Position numbers and translations under genes: made by a program
The notes under the pieces: generated by a model
Seen by the model: only the letters and a program-made list of their open reading frames with translations
Databases searched by the model: none
What the model was told of the DNA's origin: nothing
Part shown: in pieces, positions 45,346 to 58,566 of the stretch
Layout: every line of letters starts with the position of its first letter
How positions within the stretch are numbered: position 1 is the stretch's first letter
Assembly: GCA_949299375.1 (NCBI GenBank)
Contig: CASGAH010000001.1
Location: 4,193 to 68,192 of the forward strand
Reading direction: 5' to 3'
Source: an uncultured Eubacteriales bacterium
GTDB lineage: Bacteria > Bacillota > Clostridia > Lachnospirales > Lachnospiraceae
DNA: 64,000 bases

Positions 45346-46577
45346 CTAATTCATTTTGTCCCAATTTTCAATAGTCTTTTCGACAACTCTTATATTATTT
45401 TCCCCGTATTTCTCTTTCAATATCGCTAAATTCTCCGAATTCACCGCAATATTCCAGTTTCGGGGCATTTTTTTATACTGCCGCGTCGCCCGGACAAAAA
45501 TGACCAGCACATTCGTTCCTTCCCACGGCTCCACCGTCTTTTTCAGCTCTTCCTCCTGTCTCTTATAAGAGTTCCAGTCCTCAAACTGGATCCAGAGCTC
45601 TTTGGGTGTCTCCTCAAACGGGACGATTCTCTCACAAATCAGTTTTCCCGTCTGCTCTTCCCCCATAGAAACTCTTCCCCGAATGAAAAGCTTGCGGTCT
45701 TCCGTGAGCAGGGCTCGGTACTTTTCGTATTGCTTGGGGAACAAGATGACCTCAACGGTTCCGACAAGGTCTTCCATTGTCACAAATGCCATCATTTGAT
45801 TGTTCTTTGTCCCTTTCACGGTTTTTGCCGTCAGCATGCCTCCGATCACTGCCGTACTGCCGTCTGTCAGCTGGGACAGGCCCGTTTCTTCATCGACCGC
45901 AAACTGGCTGCTGACCGCTGTGGCATTTTTCTTCATCGCCCCCTCATCCTCCATCAGCGGGTGTCCGCTGATATAAATACCCAAAACGTCTTTTTCCATG
46001 GACAAAAGAACCGAGGAATCGTATTCCCCCACATCCGGGAAATCAATTTCAAAGTCTTTCCTGTCCTCTTCCTCCACCAGGTCAAACAGGCTCATCTGGC
46101 CGCTCATTGTCTCTTTTTTTTCTCTGGCGGCCTGATCCATCATCGCGGCGTACACCTGCAGTTTCTGTTTTCTCGTCCCCGGAAGCGCATCCAGCGCTCC
46201 CGCCTTGATGAAGCTCTCGATGGTTCTTTTGTTCGCCTCTTTTCCAGACATCCGGGTAATAAAGTCCTGGAGGCTGTTAAAGCGTCCATTCTCTCTGCGC
46301 TCCGCAATCAGAGCGTCAATGACAGACTTCCCTACACTTTTCAGGGCGGACAGCCCATATCGGATGTTGTCACCTGCAACCGAGAATCCGCTCTCTCCGG
46401 AATTGATGTCCGGAGGCAGAACGGAAATGCCCATCTGTCTGCAGATTTGAATATACTCCGATACTTTTCCCAGATGATCCATCACAGATGTCATCAGGGC
46501 GGCCATAAATTCCACCGGATAGTAGTGTTTTAGATAAGCTGTCTCATATGCGACAACCGCGTAACACGCAGCATGAG
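45346..46577 (-). CDS. dnaE: DNA polymerase III alpha subunit DnaE, exon 5 of 5
   Basis: Begins (T)CT CAT GCT = SHAACYAVVAYETAYLKHYYPVEFMAALM, the conserved DnaE motif that follows ...YAFNK. Runs to the stop at 45346. Confidence 0.85.
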
Positions 46578-47331
46578 ATACCGATAGGTCAGCGTTTGAT
46601 GTCATCTCTGGCTTTTCCCCCGGTCCACACCGGACATGCACCTTTCAGCGCATCCGGCGTTCCCCCGATTTCTGCGTCTTTTCCTGCAAAAACCGGCTTG
46701 AGGTCATCCCTCCCTCTCCATTACAGAGATTTCACAGGTGCGGCCTCTGCTTTTTGGCATCCGTTCAGCGGCTTATTGTGCTTCGTCCGCTTACCGAGCG
46801 CACTCGGCCCGATGCCTTTCCCCGTACCAATCCATCCTATCTGTGCATTGATATCCTTAGGTGCCTGGCTCTGAGCCTGCGGGCCTGACAGCGCCTGTAA
46901 CGCTGTATGGTGTTTCATAACAAACATTTTTACTCCACCACACCCGCGGCGTGAACGAATCTCTGCCAATCCGTATGCACTCACGCCCGGTCCGTTTCCG
47001 GACCGTCTCTCTTTAGACTCTTTCCTTCGCCGGTTCGTCAGCTGCACAGCGCAGCATTCTCACCATAGATATGTTATAGACCCCCGGCATATCACCTCCC
47101 ATGCCCAAGCGCTCAGGTTTAGGGAAGTTTCTGCCGACTTTACCGAACTTCTGACTGCCGCATTGCTTTGCACAGCCAGTCGGAGAATCAGGGCGCGTGT
47201 TTCCGGGCGTTACCCCCTCATTCCACGCAGTCGGATGATTCGTTCTCCTTCCTTCTCTTTCCGAAACAGAATTTTCGGTTTTGTAAGGCAGTGCCGGCTC
47301 TTTGTTGATTTTAAGCCGGAACGGGTCGAAC
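46578..47331 (-). mobile_element. ORF-less group II intron 4 in dnaE (754 nt)
   Basis: 5' GUUCGACCCG directly after exon AAC AAA U. Domain V at 46627..46660 (ACGCCGGAU-GCGCU-GAAA-GGUGC-AU-GUCCGGUGU). Domain VI ACCGGGGG...CCU-A-UCGGU with a bulged A 8 nt from the end. 3' AU. Confidence 0.8.
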
Positions 47332-47568
47332 ATTTGTTGAATGCGTATTTCGCGAAGTCAATCATTTCATCAAAAATCGTCTGCGCCACCGTCTCCGGAA
47401 TTCCATTGGCAACGCAGCCCTTTACACCTTCCTCCTCATTTCCATATACGAAATTCCTTCGTTCCTTCTCCATAACGGAGCCTTTCTTTTTTGACATGGC
47501 TCTGCGAACCAGGTCGCTTCTCCCAAGGGTGTATCCGGCCAGATCGCGCACGATCTGCATAACCTGTT
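47332..47568 (-). CDS. dnaE: DnaE exon 4 of 5
   Basis: (G)AA CAG GTT ATG... = EQVMQIVRDLAGYTLGRSDLVRRAMSKKK...IDFAKYAFNK. Corresponds to track ORF 47210..47560. Confidence 0.85.
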
Positions 47569-48310
47569 ATGGTGATAGGTCAGCGTTTGATTTCTCTCCG
47601 GCTTTTCCCCCACCCCGCACCGTGCGTGCAGCTTTCACCGCACACGGCGCTCCATCGTCGTCGCCTTCGATAACTCCGGCGGCGGCGACTTGTGCCCATC
47701 CCTCCATCTCCATTACAGAGACTTCATCGGTTCGAACACTGCTTTTTTGCACCGGTTCAGCCGCTTATTGTTCTTCGTCCGCTTATCGCCCGACTCGTGC
47801 ACCGTCTCAGTCCCATTTTAGAACGTCGATGAGACAATACACGAGTCCGACAACCCGATACATTTCCGTGTTCCAATAATTCTATCCCTCCAGATATCCT
47901 TAGGTTCCTGCCAGCAGCCGTCGGCTGTCTTGTGCCTGTAACACAACATGGACTTTCATAACCAGGAATTTTACTCATCCACACCTTTGTATGCGGCTGC
48001 TTCTGTCGCAGGTTCGTCCGTCTTTTGACATTCTAACCATAGATATGTTATGGACCACCGGCATATCAAGCGCCCGATCCGGTTTGCCTTTTTTCGGATC
48101 GCAGCTCTCCTGTGCCGACTTCACCGAGCTTCACACGCTGCGGCTTTCGCCGTTTTGCGCATGTCGGAGTATTATGGAGTGTGTTTCTCATCCATTTTGG
48201 ATGTCTCTTGTCCGAGAAGGCGTTACCCTTTCATTCCACACTTCGAATTATTCGTTCAGATCCCGGTTGAAAAGATCTGCCCGGTCTTTTCAACCGGGAA
48301 CGCGTCGCAC
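47569..48310 (-). mobile_element. ORF-less group II intron 3 in dnaE (742 nt)
   Basis: 5' GUGCGACGCG. Domain V at 47617..47650 (GCGCCGUGU-GCGGU-GAAA-GCUGC-AC-GCACGGUGC). Domain VI GGUGGGGG...CCU-A-UCACC. 3' AU. Confidence 0.85.
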
Positions 48311-48418
48311 CCTGATATACAATACACCCATACGTAGGAGCAAGAATTGGCTCCAATTGAGGACATTCATACGTAATCGAAGATTTGTCATTCTTTCCCT
48401 TCAGGTATTTCGGAATAA
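48311..48418 (-). CDS. dnaE: DnaE exon 3 of 5 (108-nt micro-exon)
   Basis: Own translation: (T)TT ATT CCG... = FIPKYLKGKNDKSSITYECPQLEPILAPTYGCIVYQ(E). This supplies the conserved ...P.LEPIL..TYG..VYQEQVM segment missing between the neighbouring fragments. Confidence 0.8.
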
Positions 48419-49144
48419 ATAGCGATAGGTAACCCTTTGATGGAATCCTCGGGTTTTCCCCCGCTCCGCACCGTACGTGAGTCTTTCGAGCTCATACGGC
48501 GCTCCCCCTCTGCCGCCGCACCAGGCGATGCGCGGCAGCGGCTTGTGGCTGTTGCTCCATCCTCATTACAAGGACTTCTTCGCTCGTGCCACTGCTCTCC
48601 CTGTGACAAAGGACAGTTATAAAAATACTTTTCTTTCCTGCCCACTAGATCATCGAACATAAAGGTTCTCCCTATTCACAGCTTTCAACGTTCCGATCCT
48701 TCTTCCTTCTCATCTCATACTTAGGTGCTTCCTTTGAACTCTCATGCCTAACCGTGCCTGTAACACGGTATGGCGTTTCATTTCGACCAGGATTACTCCG
48801 CCACACATGATTTTCCTATGAAGTCCGTACATTCGGAAGTTCGTCAGCTCCCTTTGGGGAAGCATTCTCACCCTATATGAGCATCGACGCCCGCCCGATC
48901 CGTTCCCCCATCACACCCTCAGCACCCTTTCGCTCCCACAAAATGGCGCGCTTGATGGAGTCCGTTCAGACGACTTTACCGAGCTTATAACATCGGATGC
49001 TTTATCATCTCCTGCTATTCGGAGGTCTCAGCGCAAACCCTTCCAGGCGTTACCCTCTCATTTGGTTTGTTGAAAGATCAGTTCTCCGCAGTCGGATTCT
49101 CTCCCGCCTGCAGGTTGGGGGTTCTCCCCCAAAACGTTTCGCAC
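48419..49144 (-). mobile_element. ORF-less group II intron 2 in dnaE (726 nt)
   Basis: 5' GUGCGAAACG after exon ...AUG GAC U. Domain V at 48468..48502 (GCGCCGUAU-GAGCUC-GAAA-GACUC-AC-GUACGGUGC). Domain VI AGCGGGGG...CCU-A-UCGCU. 3' AU. Confidence 0.85.
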
Positions 49145-49400
49145 AGTCCATTGGTCCCGGCCTGTACAGGGAAATTCCCGCAATGACATCTTCCAGATTT
49201 TCCGGTTTCAGTTCCTTCATGAAGTTTTTCATTCCGGAACTTTCCAATTGAAAGACCCCCTCTGTTCGTCCGGTCCCCAGAGAGGCAAATACTGCACTGT
49301 CATTCATTTCCATTTTGTCCATGTCAATCACAATCCCTCGGTTGTGCTTCACATTGGCGACCGCATTCTGAATGACCGTGAGTGTGCGGAGTCCAAGAAA
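49145..49400 (-). CDS. dnaE: DnaE exon 2 of 5
   Basis: TTT CTT GGA CTC... = FLGLRTLTVIQNAV...AGISLYRPGPMD. Part of track ORF 49050..49490. Confidence 0.85.
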
Positions 49401-50113
49401 ATAGGAATAGGTAAGGATCTTCCTCAGCCATTGCCTGTCCGGCGTCCTTTTCCCCTCCTTCACACCGTGCGTGCGGCTTTCACCGCACACGGCGTTCCGC
49501 CAAACACATCGCCCGCACTCGCTTTGTTCTGGCTATGGGCCTTTGCTCCAGGGGAATTGCCCCCCTTCTTCACTACTACGCCCTGCTGCCGCCCGGATTC
49601 ACAGGCCATTTCCTGCCTGTTGGAGGTTTCGACGCTTAAACATCTTGGCACCCTCCTCCGGGTTTCAATTGTTCCGTTGGTTCTATCCTTTCATTATAAC
49701 AACTTAGCTGCCGCCTTTGGCCCGCAGGCCATTCTTTCACCCTCTGCTGAATGGATTCAGAACTCCTGCTGCATTTCCAGCAGAAGCCGCAGCCGCAATG
49801 GACAATGCGTCTGCCGCGGCCCAAATCCTTGTTGGATTTGTCTCTGCGGGTCTTTCCCACGGCGGTTCCCGGTGAGTCAGCCTATTGTTTTTCAGAGGAC
49901 CCCCGGCGATTGTCTCGCCGACTTTACCGAGCTTCATACCGTTTTGCTTTAAGCCAAAACCGCATGTCGGAGGATCAGGGAGTGGGGCATCAGCATTTGC
50001 TCCGTAGACGGAATTGCACCGTCCTCATCAAACCAACCGTTAAACAGGTTTCTTTCCCTGTTCCGCTGACTTGTTTCCGTTTCCAGAGTGTTTCGCCAGC
50101 GAACAATTCGCAC
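49401..50113 (-). mobile_element. ORF-less group II intron 1 in dnaE (713 nt)
   Basis: 5' GUGCGAAUUG directly after ...LGLLKMD (GAC at 50116..50114). Domain V at 49462..49495 (ACGCCGUGU-GCGGU-GAAA-GCCGC-AC-GCACGGUGU). Domain VI GGAGGGG...CCU-A-UUCC. 3' AU. Confidence 0.85.
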
Positions 50114-51778
50114 GTCCATTTTTAACAATCCAAGCTCCTCTAGCGTCGTCATCGTAAACTGCGTTGTGATGGAACCGTCCGCTCCCTTAGACAGGGGGAC
50201 GTACTCATCGACCGGCAGCTGGCTGATGACAACACCCGCCGCGTGCATTGAGGTATGTCTTGGCATTCCCTCTAATTTTCGCGACATCTCAATCAGGTTG
50301 TGAATTTCCGGATCCGCCGTATACAGACTCCTGAGTTCGGGGTTCCTCTCCAAAGCTTCATCGATGGTGATGTTTAATTCGTTTGGAATCATCTTTGCCA
50401 CCGTATCGCACCGGGAATAGGGGAGATCCAGCACCCGCCCGACATCCCGGATGACGCCTTTGGCCGCCATCGTACCAAATGTGACAATTTGCACGACCTC
50501 ATCCTTGCCGTATTTTTGAACAACATAGTCGATCACTTCCTGACGGCGCTCAAAGCAGAAGTCAATGTCGATGTCCGGCATTGAGATCCGCTCCGGATTC
50601 AAAAAACGCTCAAAGATCAGGCTGTAGCGGATCGGGTCAATGTTTGTAATTCCAAGACAGTAGGCGACAAGACTTCCCGCTGCGGATCCTCTTCCGGGTC
50701 CGACCATAATCTTTCGGCTTCTCGCAAAGCGGATGAAATCCCACACAATCAGGAAGTAGTCCACGTATCCCATTGTGCGGATCACGCTTAATTCGTACTC
50801 CAGCTTGTTTTCCAGCGCTTCCTTCCCGCCTGCTTTCTCCGGATCCGGATACCGCTTTTGAAGCCCTTCCCGGCAGAGTTTTCTTAGATATTCCCAGGCG
50901 GTATACCCTTGCGGGACATGGAATTTTGGCAGCTTTGTCACGCCAAACTCAATCGTTACGCTGCACCGCTGCGCGATCTTGTGTGTGTTTTCCAATGCCT
51001 GCAGTGCATAGGGAAACAGCTGCGCCATTTCCTGCTCCGACTTGCAGTAGTACTGCCCGCCCTCATAGCGCATCCGCTTCTCATCTTTTACTTTCTTTCC
51101 GGTCTGGATGCAGAGCAAAATGTCGTGGGCTGCCGCATCCTCTTCTCTGATGTAGTGAATGTCATTTGTTGCTACCAGCTCGATTCCCGTCTCTCTGGAC
51201 ATGCGCAGAAGAGACATATTGACCGTCTTTTGCGCGGAAATGCCATGATCCTGCAGTTCCAAAAAGAAATTTCCTTTTCCGAAAATGCGCTCATAGCGAA
51301 GCGCCGACTGTTTCGCCTCTTCGTACATTCCCCGCTCCAGAAAGCGGGCGACCTCACCGGCCAGACAGGCGCTCAAGGCAATGATCCCCTCATGGTATTG
51401 CGCAAGCACCTCGTAATCCACCCGTGGTCTGTAGTAGTAGCCATCCACAAATCCTTTGGATACAATCTTCATCAGGTTGTGGTATCCGGTGTCGTTTTCG
51501 GCCAGGAGGATCAGGTGGTAATACCGGTCTTCTCCCTCGGTCTTTTCCCGGTCAAAGCGGGAACCTGGCGCCACGTATACTTCGCAGCCGAGAATCGGCT
51601 TAATGCCAGCCTCGCGGGCCGCCCGGTAGAAGTCGATGACACCATACATTACCCCATGATCTGTTATGGCCATACTGTCCATTCCCAATTCTTTTGCGCG
51701 GGAAACAAGCTCTTTGATTTTGCAGGAACCATCCAAAAGGCTATATTCCGTATGCACATGAAGATGGGTAAATGCCAT
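50114..51778 (-). CDS. dnaE: DnaE exon 1 of 5 (PHP and palm/thumb region)
   Basis: Start MAFTHLHVHTEYSLLDG at 51778 with an AAAGGAAAGGAAG RBS. 555 codons ending ...TMTTLEELGLLKMD. The track ORF then runs 165 nt into intron 1 before a stop. Confidence 0.9.
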
Positions 51779-57351: not shown

Positions 57352-58566
57352 TCAATGCTGGCGGTAGTGGCTCAGGAACAGCTCTAGCTTATCCATCGCT
57401 ATTTTGAGTTCCTCCACCCTCGGCAGATAAACGATGCGGAAATGGTCGGGCTGCGGCCAGTTGAATCCTTTTCCATGCACAATGAGCACCTGCTGCTGCT
57501 TTAGGAAGTCGAGCGCAAATTTTTCGTCATCGGTGATTCCAAAGCGCGCAATGTCGATTTTCGGGAAAATATAGAAGGCAGCCCTTGGCTTTACTGCGGA
57601 CAGTCCGGGGATATCATTTAACGCTTTGTAGATGAATTCCCGCTGTTCGTAGATTCTTCCTCCGGGGAGAAGCAGTTCGTCTGCGCTCTGCACGCCGCCC
57701 AGAGAAGTCTGCACGATGCTCTGGGCCGGCACGTTCGAGCACAGGCGCATCGAGGACAAAAGGTTGAGTCCTTCAATGTACCCCTTTGCCTTCGATTTGT
57801 CGCCGGACAGACACATCCATCCGATGCGGAACCCTGCGATGCGGTGAGATTTGGAAAGTCCATTTAACGTCACACAAAACAGGTCCGGGCAGAGGGAGGC
57901 GATGGAAATATGTTCTCCTTCCATAACAAGGCGGTCGTAAATCTCATCGGAGAAGATAATCAGCTCATGCTCTCTTGCAATCTCAACAATCTCCATCAGC
58001 AGTTCTTTGGAATACAGCGCACCCGTCGGATTGTTCGGATTGATGATTACGATTCCTTTCGTCTGGGAGGTGATCTTCTTGCGAATGTCCTCTGGGTCGG
58101 GATACCAATCCGCCTGCTCGTCGCAGATGTAGTGTACCGCCTTCCCGCCTGACAGATGGACCGCTGCGGTCCAGAGCGGATAATCCGGCGCTGGAACAAG
58201 GATTTCATCGCCAGTATCCAAAAGTCCCTGCATACACATCACAATCAACTCGCTGACCCCGTTGCCGGTGTAGACATCGTTGATGCCGACATTTGGAATC
58301 TTTTTCAGCTGACAGTACTGCATAATGGCTTTGCGGGCAGAAAAAATCCCCTTGGAGTCGGAGTATCCTTCTGACCTCCGAAGATTATAGGATAAATCCT
58401 GGATTACTTCGAGCGGAGCGGTAAATCCAAATGGAGCCGGGTTTCCGATATTGAGCTTCAGAATATCCACACCATCCTCCACCATGCGGTTGGCCTCCTC
58501 CACGACCGGTCCTCTCACATCATAACATACATTGTCTAATTTGCGGGATTTTTCAAATTCTCTCAT
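57352..58566 (-). CDS. class I/II PLP-dependent aminotransferase (AlaA/aromatic-type)
   Basis: 404-aa ORF (LNIGNPAPFGF, SLNGLSKSHRIAGFRIGW with PLP lysine context). Confidence 0.85.
   Translation of the reverse strand: MREFEKSRKLDNVCYDVRGPVVEEANRMVEDGVDILKLNIGNPAPFGFTAPLEVIQDLSYNLRRSEGYSDSKGIFSARKAIMQYCQLKKIPNVGINDVYTGNGVSELIVMCMQGLLDTGDEILVPAPDYPLWTAAVHLSGGKAVHYICDEQADWYPDPEDIRKKITSQTKGIVIINPNNPTGALYSKELLMEIVEIAREHELIIFSDEIYDRLVMEGEHISIASLCPDLFCVTLNGLSKSHRIAGFRIGWMCLSGDKSKAKGYIEGLNLLSSMRLCSNVPAQSIVQTSLGGVQSADELLLPGGRIYEQREFIYKALNDIPGLSAVKPRAAFYIFPKIDIARFGITDDEKFALDFLKQQQVLIVHGKGFNWPQPDHFRIVYLPRVEELKIAMDKLELFLSHYRQH

Follow-up and report, generated by a model that had tools for sequence, protein, structure and literature searches.

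Bacterial group II introns tend to avoid housekeeping genes, and derivatives lacking an open reading frame (ORF) are rare and short-lived, the main exception being cyanobacterial (PMC4424553). The closest known arrangement to the one described here is dnaN of Trichodesmium erythraeum, which contains four ORF-less group II introns spliced with the reverse transcriptase (RT)/maturase of the RIR intron (PMC12584367); a parallel to multi-intron genes of Trichodesmium had been drawn in an initial annotation of the DNA considered here. Single introns in housekeeping genes are described as well, namely in recA of Geobacillus kaustophilus and, at the stop codon, in groEL of Azotobacter vinelandii (PMC12584367). 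Among known intron types, the nearest is C.te.I1 of Clostridium tetani, which resides in a surface-layer protein gene and shows alternative splicing with extra copies of domains D5/D6 as well as a shifted 5' splice site (PMC4024640). Here, we report on a 64-kb stretch of contig CASGAH010000001.1 (assembly GCA_949299375.1; in the following, the window) from a gut-type Lachnospiraceae bacterium, in which dnaE, coding for DNA polymerase III alpha, is divided into five exons by four ORF-less group II introns (I1 to I4). With a probability of roughly 0.85, the sequence points to one functional dnaE gene whose four class B-like, ORF-less introns are spliced, most likely with the assistance in trans of an RT/maturase.

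Trichodesmium dnaN and the dnaE locus both combine several ORF-less introns in one bacterial replication gene, the expression of which needs multiple splicing events, and for dnaE, too, the helper would probably be a related intron-encoded protein (IEP) acting in trans. The dnaE locus differs in that its host is a Firmicute (Lachnospiraceae) and not a cyanobacterium, and that the gene is dnaE, not dnaN; its introns appear to be class B-like with a CGC triad, their sites are common to several species in differing subsets, and at 55–59% mutual identity they are not the closely related ORF-less copies of the Trichodesmium gene. Similar to recA and groEL in the cases cited above, dnaE is a conserved or essential gene that tolerates group II introns, which must be removed by splicing; however, those introns are single, ORF-containing and mobile, whereas dnaE has four ORF-less ones. 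With C.te.I1 the dnaE introns share the clostridial host, the lack of an ORF, the CGC triad and the location inside a protein-coding gene (PMC4024640), but they have a single D5/D6, canonical boundaries and a core replication gene as host; the comparison was made by described features. Introns of organelles provide another comparison, as the dnaE introns are ORF-less, occupy fixed positions in a conserved gene, are common to related genomes, and would have to be spliced obligatorily. Organellar introns are inherited vertically and depend on host nuclear factors, whereas the dnaE introns show a tree conflict in at least one pair of lineages, which points to continuing horizontal movement. The arrangement is organelle-like and rare in bacteria. 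Novel aspects are the gene and the phylum concerned, how many introns there are and how far they diverge from one another, and that their sites are shared across the family; as to the chemistry, ordinary group II splicing is to be expected. A full-text literature search, limited to sources outside subscription journals, retrieved no publication on dnaE genes with group II introns from Clostridia or Lachnospiraceae.

All parts of the gene lie on the minus strand, and the spliced frame joins positions 51778–50114, 49400–49145, 48418–48311, 47568–47332 and 46577–45346. DnaE homology starts from an ATG at 51778 with an N-terminus (MAFTHLHVHTEY) that matches orthologues exactly, and is uninterrupted only as far as 50114. 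Exon 1 (50114..51778; residues 1–555) codes for the PHP domain and the polymerase core, and its last residue is the aspartate aligned with D555 of E. coli Pol III alpha. It is followed by exon 2 (49145..49400; residues 556–640 plus 1 nt), exon 3 (48311..48418; residues 641–676), exon 4 (47332..47568; residues 677–755), and exon 5 (45346..46577; residues 756–1165 and the stop codon), which contains the HHH and OB domains. The exon lengths of 1665, 256, 108, 237 and 1232 nt add up to 3498 nt, i.e., 1165 codons and one terminal stop without any internal stop, and the peptides across the four junctions read LLKMD/FLGL, GPMD/FIPKY, IVYQ/EQVMQ and AFNK/SHAACY. The introns comprise 713, 726, 742 and 754 nt (2935 nt in total), and there is no ORF of note within any of them. 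I1, I2 and I3 begin with GUGCG and I4 with GUUCG; the 3' ends read ...CCUAUNNNNAU, except for I3, which ends in ...CCUAUCACCAU (termini of I1: 5' GUGCG, 3' ...CCUAUUCCUAU). An identical intron structure of dnaE is present on a separate contig from ENA (L081). The split structure is real and base-exact. The coordinates, junctions, junction peptides, total length and codon number which the initial annotation had proposed were all reproduced, and the 5' ends that it had read, GUGCG in three copies and GUUCG in one, were the same on re-examination. Its statement that the four copies fall within about 0.6 kb of coding sequence agrees with the sum of exons 2–4 (601 nt), and the PCR products it had predicted, of about 3.7 kb from genomic DNA and about 0.77 kb from cDNA, fit 2935 nt of intron.

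Covariance models of Rfam were run on the whole window at their curated gathering thresholds (RF00029, 40 bits; RF02004, 34.5 bits). Exactly four matches to RF00029, representing domains V and VI, were obtained, one per insert, with scores of 54–62 bits and E-values of 1e-9 to 8e-8, and four matches to RF02004 (group-II-D1D4-5), again one per insert, scored 53–122 bits; the scan revealed no further group II match in the window. In I1 (49401..50113), a member of a lineage with extended domain VI, the matches to RF02004 and RF00029 are at 49892–50044 (53.4 bits) and 49401–49497 (59 bits), respectively; in I2 (48419..49144), at 48880–49086 (96.3 bits) and 48419–48504 (54.1 bits); in I3 (47569..48310), at 48047–48259 (98.5 bits) and 47569–47652 (61.8 bits); and in I4 (46578..47331), at 47073–47247 (121.9 bits) and 46578–46662 (54.9 bits). 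The search for domains V/VI and D1–D4 which the initial annotation had recommended was hence positive for all four inserts. Since the RF00029 matches above the gathering threshold end exactly at 49401, 48419, 47569 and 46578, which are the bases abutting the resumed exons, the placement of the introns is far beyond chance.

Group II introns are recognized by a domain V hairpin of 34 nt that contains a G.U wobble, a bulge of 2 nt and a catalytic triad reading AGC or CGC; further hallmarks are a bulged branch-point A in domain VI, located 7–8 nt before the 3' splice site, an AY end of the intron, and GUGYG at its 5' end. The 3'-terminal ~100 nt were aligned for 14 copies, i.e., the four of the window plus ten of relatives, which yielded a consensus of 29 base pairs, 15 of which show double compensatory changes. 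The CGC triad and the G.U wobble of domain V are invariant in all 14 copies, none of which has AGC. Equally invariant is an unpaired A in the domain VI helix (alignment column 100) at position -8 from the 3' end, corresponding to predicted branch points at 49408 (I1), 48426 (I2), 47576 (I3) and 46585 (I4), and all aligned copies end in AU. The GUUCG start of I4 is a one-base variant of GUGYG and recurs on contig L090, where the one further I4 copy that is complete was found; a single-sequence minimum free energy fold of I4 contains two hairpins at intron nucleotides 12–38 and 44–81. Judged by these features, the four inserts are group II introns. The CGC triad, which is common to essentially all bacterial class B introns (PMC4024640), together with an RT-HNH-encoding relative at the I1 site of another genome (contig L085, see below), points to an affiliation of the dnaE introns with bacterial class B (IIB-like).

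Pairing between exon-binding sites (EBS) of the introns and intron-binding sites (IBS) of the exons provides a further line of evidence. EBS1 was located by motif-anchored extraction, since aligning the four introns globally with MAFFT gave too loose a result for that purpose; EBS1 candidates in conserved core motifs, e.g. CUUGAUA inside GAUAUGCCGG, were dropped because of their non-loop positions. I2, I3 and I4 have a 23-nt terminal loop with a covarying closing stem (GUGUGGNN...NNCCAUAC), in which the EBS1 heptamer occupies loop positions 11–17. EBS1 of I1 is located in another hairpin, the loop of which (UUGUCCAUUG) is invariant in the window, L085 and L090, with a wholly different closing-stem sequence. 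The predicted EBS1 of I1 (GUCCAUU, 49797..49803) forms seven of seven possible Watson-Crick pairs with AAUGGAC, the 3'-terminal heptamer of exon 1, and that of I4 (GUUUGUU, 46919..46925) forms seven pairs, including one G.U, with AACAAAU. In I3 (47960..47992), EBS1 (CCUGGUU, 47960–47966) makes six pairs with UAUCAGG of the exon, and an upstream EBS2 (AUACAA, 47987–47992) pairs with the next six exon nucleotides, so that 12 contiguous exon nucleotides, UUGUAU-AUCAGG, are paired jointly. The EBS1-equivalent heptamer of I2 (GGUCGAA, 48782..48788) pairs weakly with AUGGACU, namely by four contiguous pairs plus one. Compensatory changes were found in relatives: in I3 of L088, a change of the exon from CAGG to CAAG is accompanied by a change of EBS1 from CCUGG to CUUGG; in I2 of L220, the exon change from GGACU to GGAAU goes along with AGUCUA to AUUCCA in EBS1; and in EBS2 of I3 in L220, a C to U exchange goes along with G to A in the exon. 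EBS3/IBS3 was not located for any of the four introns. Because the EBS loops change to match exon differences between genomes, the comparison is direct evidence of selection acting on the exon binding of these ORF-less introns.

The protein encoded by the joined exons contains, in order, the Pfam domains PF02811, PF07733, PF17657, PF14579 and PF01336 (PHP, pol3_alpha, finger, HHH and OB), and aligns to solved structures of Pol III alpha from Taq (1e-116) and E. coli (2e-109). Its alignment with 80 intron-less orthologues is colinear and shows no gap at the junctions. Its MPDIDIDF sequence aligns with the corresponding E. coli motif, and the residues are conserved at the positions of D401, D403 and D555 of E. 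coli Pol III alpha, which we take to be the catalytic aspartates. D555 of the spliced protein aligns with D556 of chain 4jom_A; the numbering of this chain is shifted by +1 relative to 2hnh, and the residue corresponds to native E. coli D555. I1 is inserted directly after the codon of this aspartate. When 8-residue windows are ranked by conservation, the I1 site is within the top 0.3%, I3 within the top 1.7%, I4 within the top 5.5% and I2 within the top 16%; by this measure, all four insertion sites are in conserved DnaE motifs. The nearest relative with a long contig, L088, shares 87% amino acid identity (97% over exon 3) and the same dnaE-pfkA-spoU synteny, a gene order that is also found in intron-less relatives. 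Compared with L088, dN/dS is 0.042 overall and 0.02–0.11 per exon, at a dS of about 1.8, which rules out a decaying pseudogene. Both checks of the protein suggested by the initial annotation, alignment to orthologues and a search for relaxed selection, accordingly speak for an intact gene.

Relatives were located by searching the protein collection with the product of exon 5; fragments that matched began at discrete positions, and the contigs were then inspected. Prevalence estimates obtained in this way are based on lists of the top 120 matches, which appear to be biased towards fragments. The I1 site alone is occupied in L085 (Logan SRR27608107) by an intron of 3.27 kb with an RT/maturase ORF and an additional lipoprotein-like ORF, and the I2 site alone in L092 (NCBI GCA_045121495.1). 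I2 and I3 are present in L088 (ENA ERZ27271098) and in L219–L223, which are of the Ca. Fimimorpha type and comprise one metagenome-assembled genome (MAG) from NCBI (GCA_051879775.1) and several independent Logan runs. L089 (Logan ERR11553347) contains I1, I2 and I3, and L090 (NCBI GCA_051879015.1) I1 and I4, so that the sets occupied in relatives are {I1}, {I2}, {I2,I3}, {I1,I2,I3} and {I1,I4}. In three different assemblies (L084, L086, L087), the contig starts with the 3' end of I1, after which the ORF runs uninterrupted to the C-terminus. Of the loci found, the window alone has all four sites filled. The junction positions are nucleotide-identical between the window and the relatives, and the spliced dnaE ORFs of L088, L090, L092 and L220, which were checked, are intact. 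Identity of the domain V–VI region is 0.76–0.98 for introns of the same site versus 0.54–0.78 across sites; the same-site copy is the closest for I1, I2 and I4, and less clearly so for I3. The initial annotation had called the arrangement very unusual. This holds with respect to the best 80 species-representative genomes listed, with DnaE identities of at most 75%, in all of which dnaE is uninterrupted and none of which gave an nhmmer match to the intron profile, although the species of the window itself may have escaped this listing of GTDB representatives; however, the four sites are common, in subsets, to other Lachnospiraceae.

The intron at the I1 site of L085 codes for a 621-aa RT-X-HNH protein (TIGR04416, 322 bits at a cutoff of 300; best PDB match LtrA, 7e-57). 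A 121-aa ORF 3' of the RT inside the same intron (L085 3207–3572, plus strand) encodes a protein with a lipoprotein-type signal peptide (MMKRIISICLVICLATLALTGC...) that has no NCBIfam match; possibly, the group II intron carries it as cargo. RT remnants were sought in all introns: none was detected in the four introns of the window, and the only match was in I4 of L090 (9826–9855; intron nucleotides 734–763), where 10 amino acids exactly match residues 228–237 of the L085 RT (tblastn E = 0.05), which may represent a relic of a lost intron ORF. In the record of GCA_051879015.1 (L090 5709–9992), there is no protein for the 5' three-quarters of dnaE (exons 1–4), and the 3' fragment is annotated merely as 'OB-fold nucleic acid binding domain-containing protein'; standard pipelines thus annotate intron-split dnaE genes wrongly or lose them altogether.

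A wide distribution of split dnaE genes, as the predominance of fragments among the database matches would suggest, was rejected in part. L082 (8162–11636) and L083 (7235–11425) are frameshifted long-read assemblies with overlapping ORFs of about 3.5 kb and 4.2 kb in total, due to frameshift errors and not to introns. Likewise, 54 protein clusters starting at M680 were rejected as evidence for occupancy of I3, since exon 3 contains no Met and M680 is thus the first start available downstream of I2 as well as of I3; in L092, for instance, only I2 is present. The contigs of the populous cluster P0148 (L214–L218), which are from different runs and assemblers, all begin 0–18 nt before Met680 and at most 9 nt upstream of the I3 junction; they contain no intron sequence, and the cluster was not counted as I3 evidence.

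Among themselves, the introns of the window are 55–59% identical, and they share 50–62% identity with introns at the same sites elsewhere. Between the window and L088, the exons are 79% identical at the nucleotide level, the same-site introns only 50–54%. The opposite relation is seen for L088 (7441–9983) and L220 (4769–6992): I2 and I3 are 90–92% identical over their first 500 nt, whereas dnaE is synonymously saturated, with third-position identities of 0.29–0.50 and exon identities of 65–76%, which are not raised beside the junctions. By these comparisons, the histories of introns and hosts are discordant. Since intron and host trees disagree, ORF-less copies have in recent times invaded identical sites in separate lineages, and such movement would require an RT supplied in trans. 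Insertion without flanking co-conversion is the pattern expected of retrohoming, which we infer to be the probable route of transfer. The introns of the window are the shortest of all copies found (713–754 nt, as compared to 859–1397 nt for same-site introns of relatives), and also the most GC-rich, with 52–55% GC as compared to 50% in the exons of the window and to 33–41% in the introns of relatives, which are below their own exons. This suggests either long residence and streamlining in the lineage of the host, or different donors.

Scanning metagenomes for the domain V–VI signature revealed at least 80 loci, mostly in human-gut assemblies (L094–L173). Most of the 80 loci listed have an RT ORF just upstream of the signature, and none of them is located in dnaE. 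RT-encoding introns of this signature are thus abundant in the human gut and recur at a handful of targets; two of the sites examined lie in genes of a type IV secretion system coupling protein (PF02534) and an NlpC/P60 protein (PF00877), which, by their domain content, are typical of conjugative elements. The autonomous relatives therefore behave like usual bacterial group II introns, which makes the residents of dnaE an unusual branch.

The most plausible course of events is that dnaE is transcribed as a precursor of about 6.4 kb, in which each intron would fold into a ribozyme whose EBS1 (and EBS2) pairs with the last 6–12 nt of the upstream exon. Using the bulged A at position -8 and the CGC-triad domain V, the introns would be excised as lariats and the exons rejoined in frame, so that DnaE would be made only after all four splicing events. 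Since the dnaE introns have no IEP, splicing is likely to be trans-assisted, and the helper would be the RT/maturase of a related class B intron that has an ORF and is located at another place in the genome; the same protein would also account for the homing of ORF-less copies into dnaE sites across the Lachnospiraceae. Assistance by such a maturase is the mode of splicing that we favour, albeit only slightly, because ORF-less bacterial introns almost always coexist with an IEP (PMC4424553), and because ORF-less members of the family are mobile and an RT-bearing member occupies the I1 site of L085; precedents for a trans-acting maturase are cited in PMC4424553 and PMC12584367. That replication depends on efficient splicing, as the initial annotation had concluded, is plausible, but in Firmicutes DnaE acts alongside PolC (PMC5627055, PMC3664799), so that replication does not rely on DnaE alone. 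Splicing might conceivably also be put to regulatory use.

Several observations weigh against this picture. Splicing is read from DNA, i.e., from an intact and selected ORF, and the assignment to class B is based on the CGC triad and the RT architecture of a relative, not on phylogeny. The EBS1-IBS1 pairing of I2 in the window is the weakest of all copies (4+1 pairs, as compared to six in L088, L092 and L220 at the same loop positions), and the search for EBS2 yielded no convincing candidate in I2 and I4, nor was one recognized across the I2 lineage. The window encodes no RT/maturase, and, given the mutual and same-site divergence of the introns, one maturase would have to serve quite divergent RNAs. 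A maturase is perhaps not needed at all, since C.te.I1, an ORF-less class B intron from a clostridial genome without an IEP, shows robust self-splicing in vitro (PMC4024640, PMC4424553). The dnaE introns might analogously be streamlined, maturase-free ribozymes that are now fixed and immobile like those of organelles. Their shortness and high GC content would fit long residence and streamlining, their Rfam scores are comparable to those of the relatives, suggesting that the ribozyme cores are not degenerate, and the absence of an RT from the window would be explained as well, although this absence extends over 64 kb of the genome only. However, the majority of ORF-less introns in bacteria are accompanied by a related IEP (PMC4424553), the ORF-less copies in relatives moved between species, which needs an RT, and the weak EBS1 of I2 argues for a helper; autonomous self-splicing is the main alternative and a serious one, albeit less likely.

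The two remaining explanations question the gene or the contig instead of the helper. A dispensable gene copy could most readily accommodate four insertions, and a second dnaE outside the 64 kb of the window is conceivable, so that the gene might be a decaying or silenced pseudogene invaded by introns, with another polymerase gene doing the work. We consider this highly improbable, because the 3498-nt ORF is free of stops and frameshifts, no exon exceeds a dN/dS of 0.11, all five Pfam domains and the residues at the catalytic aspartate positions are intact, the dnaE-pfkA-spoU synteny is kept, and relatives with subsets of the introns have intact ORFs. Mis-stitching of a multicopy intron sequence into dnaE by the metagenome assembler would be suggested by the repeat nature of introns, by the many Logan contigs of relatives that break at intron ends, and by the frameshift artefacts among database 'split' dnaE genes mentioned above. 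However, the same structure is present on the independent ENA contig, the points of insertion are nucleotide-precise, restore the frame and are matched by EBS1, and the same sites recur across samples, assemblers and species; moreover, introns with so low a mutual identity are not collapsible repeats. An assembly artefact is thus extremely improbable, and a functional, spliced dnaE, probably assisted in trans, is retained as the best interpretation.

Apart from dnaE, a T-box leader (RF00230; 58708–59000, minus strand; 99.3 bits at a gathering threshold of 93) was observed in the window directly upstream of an ORF coding for a class I/II aminotransferase (57352–58566, minus strand), which, as predicted from this match, is under tRNA-sensing control.

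Gene callers fragment a dnaE gene of this kind into three to five pieces or discard it as a pseudogene, and such splitting or dropping in turn distorts estimates of MAG completeness, marker-gene phylogenies and catalogues of essential genes. The compact (713–754 nt), GC-rich introns of the window are candidates for ribozyme biochemistry, and the dnaE system is tractable for addressing the tolerance of obligatory multi-intron splicing, the source of the maturase, and the mobility of ORF-less introns. A more speculative proposal, which we regard as doubtful at present, is that ORF-less class B introns form a stable set which is specific to the four conserved dnaE motifs and common to the whole family Lachnospiraceae, and which persists across large divergences (dS >1.7) and yet re-homes between species via an RT acting in trans. 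If this were true, it would run counter to the notion that group II derivatives lacking autonomy fail to last in bacteria (PMC4424553), and the set would be a bacterial counterpart of the 'resident' introns of organelles; the synthesis of DnaE in these organisms would then be gated by four splicing events, which might be regulable via the maturase or Mg2+.

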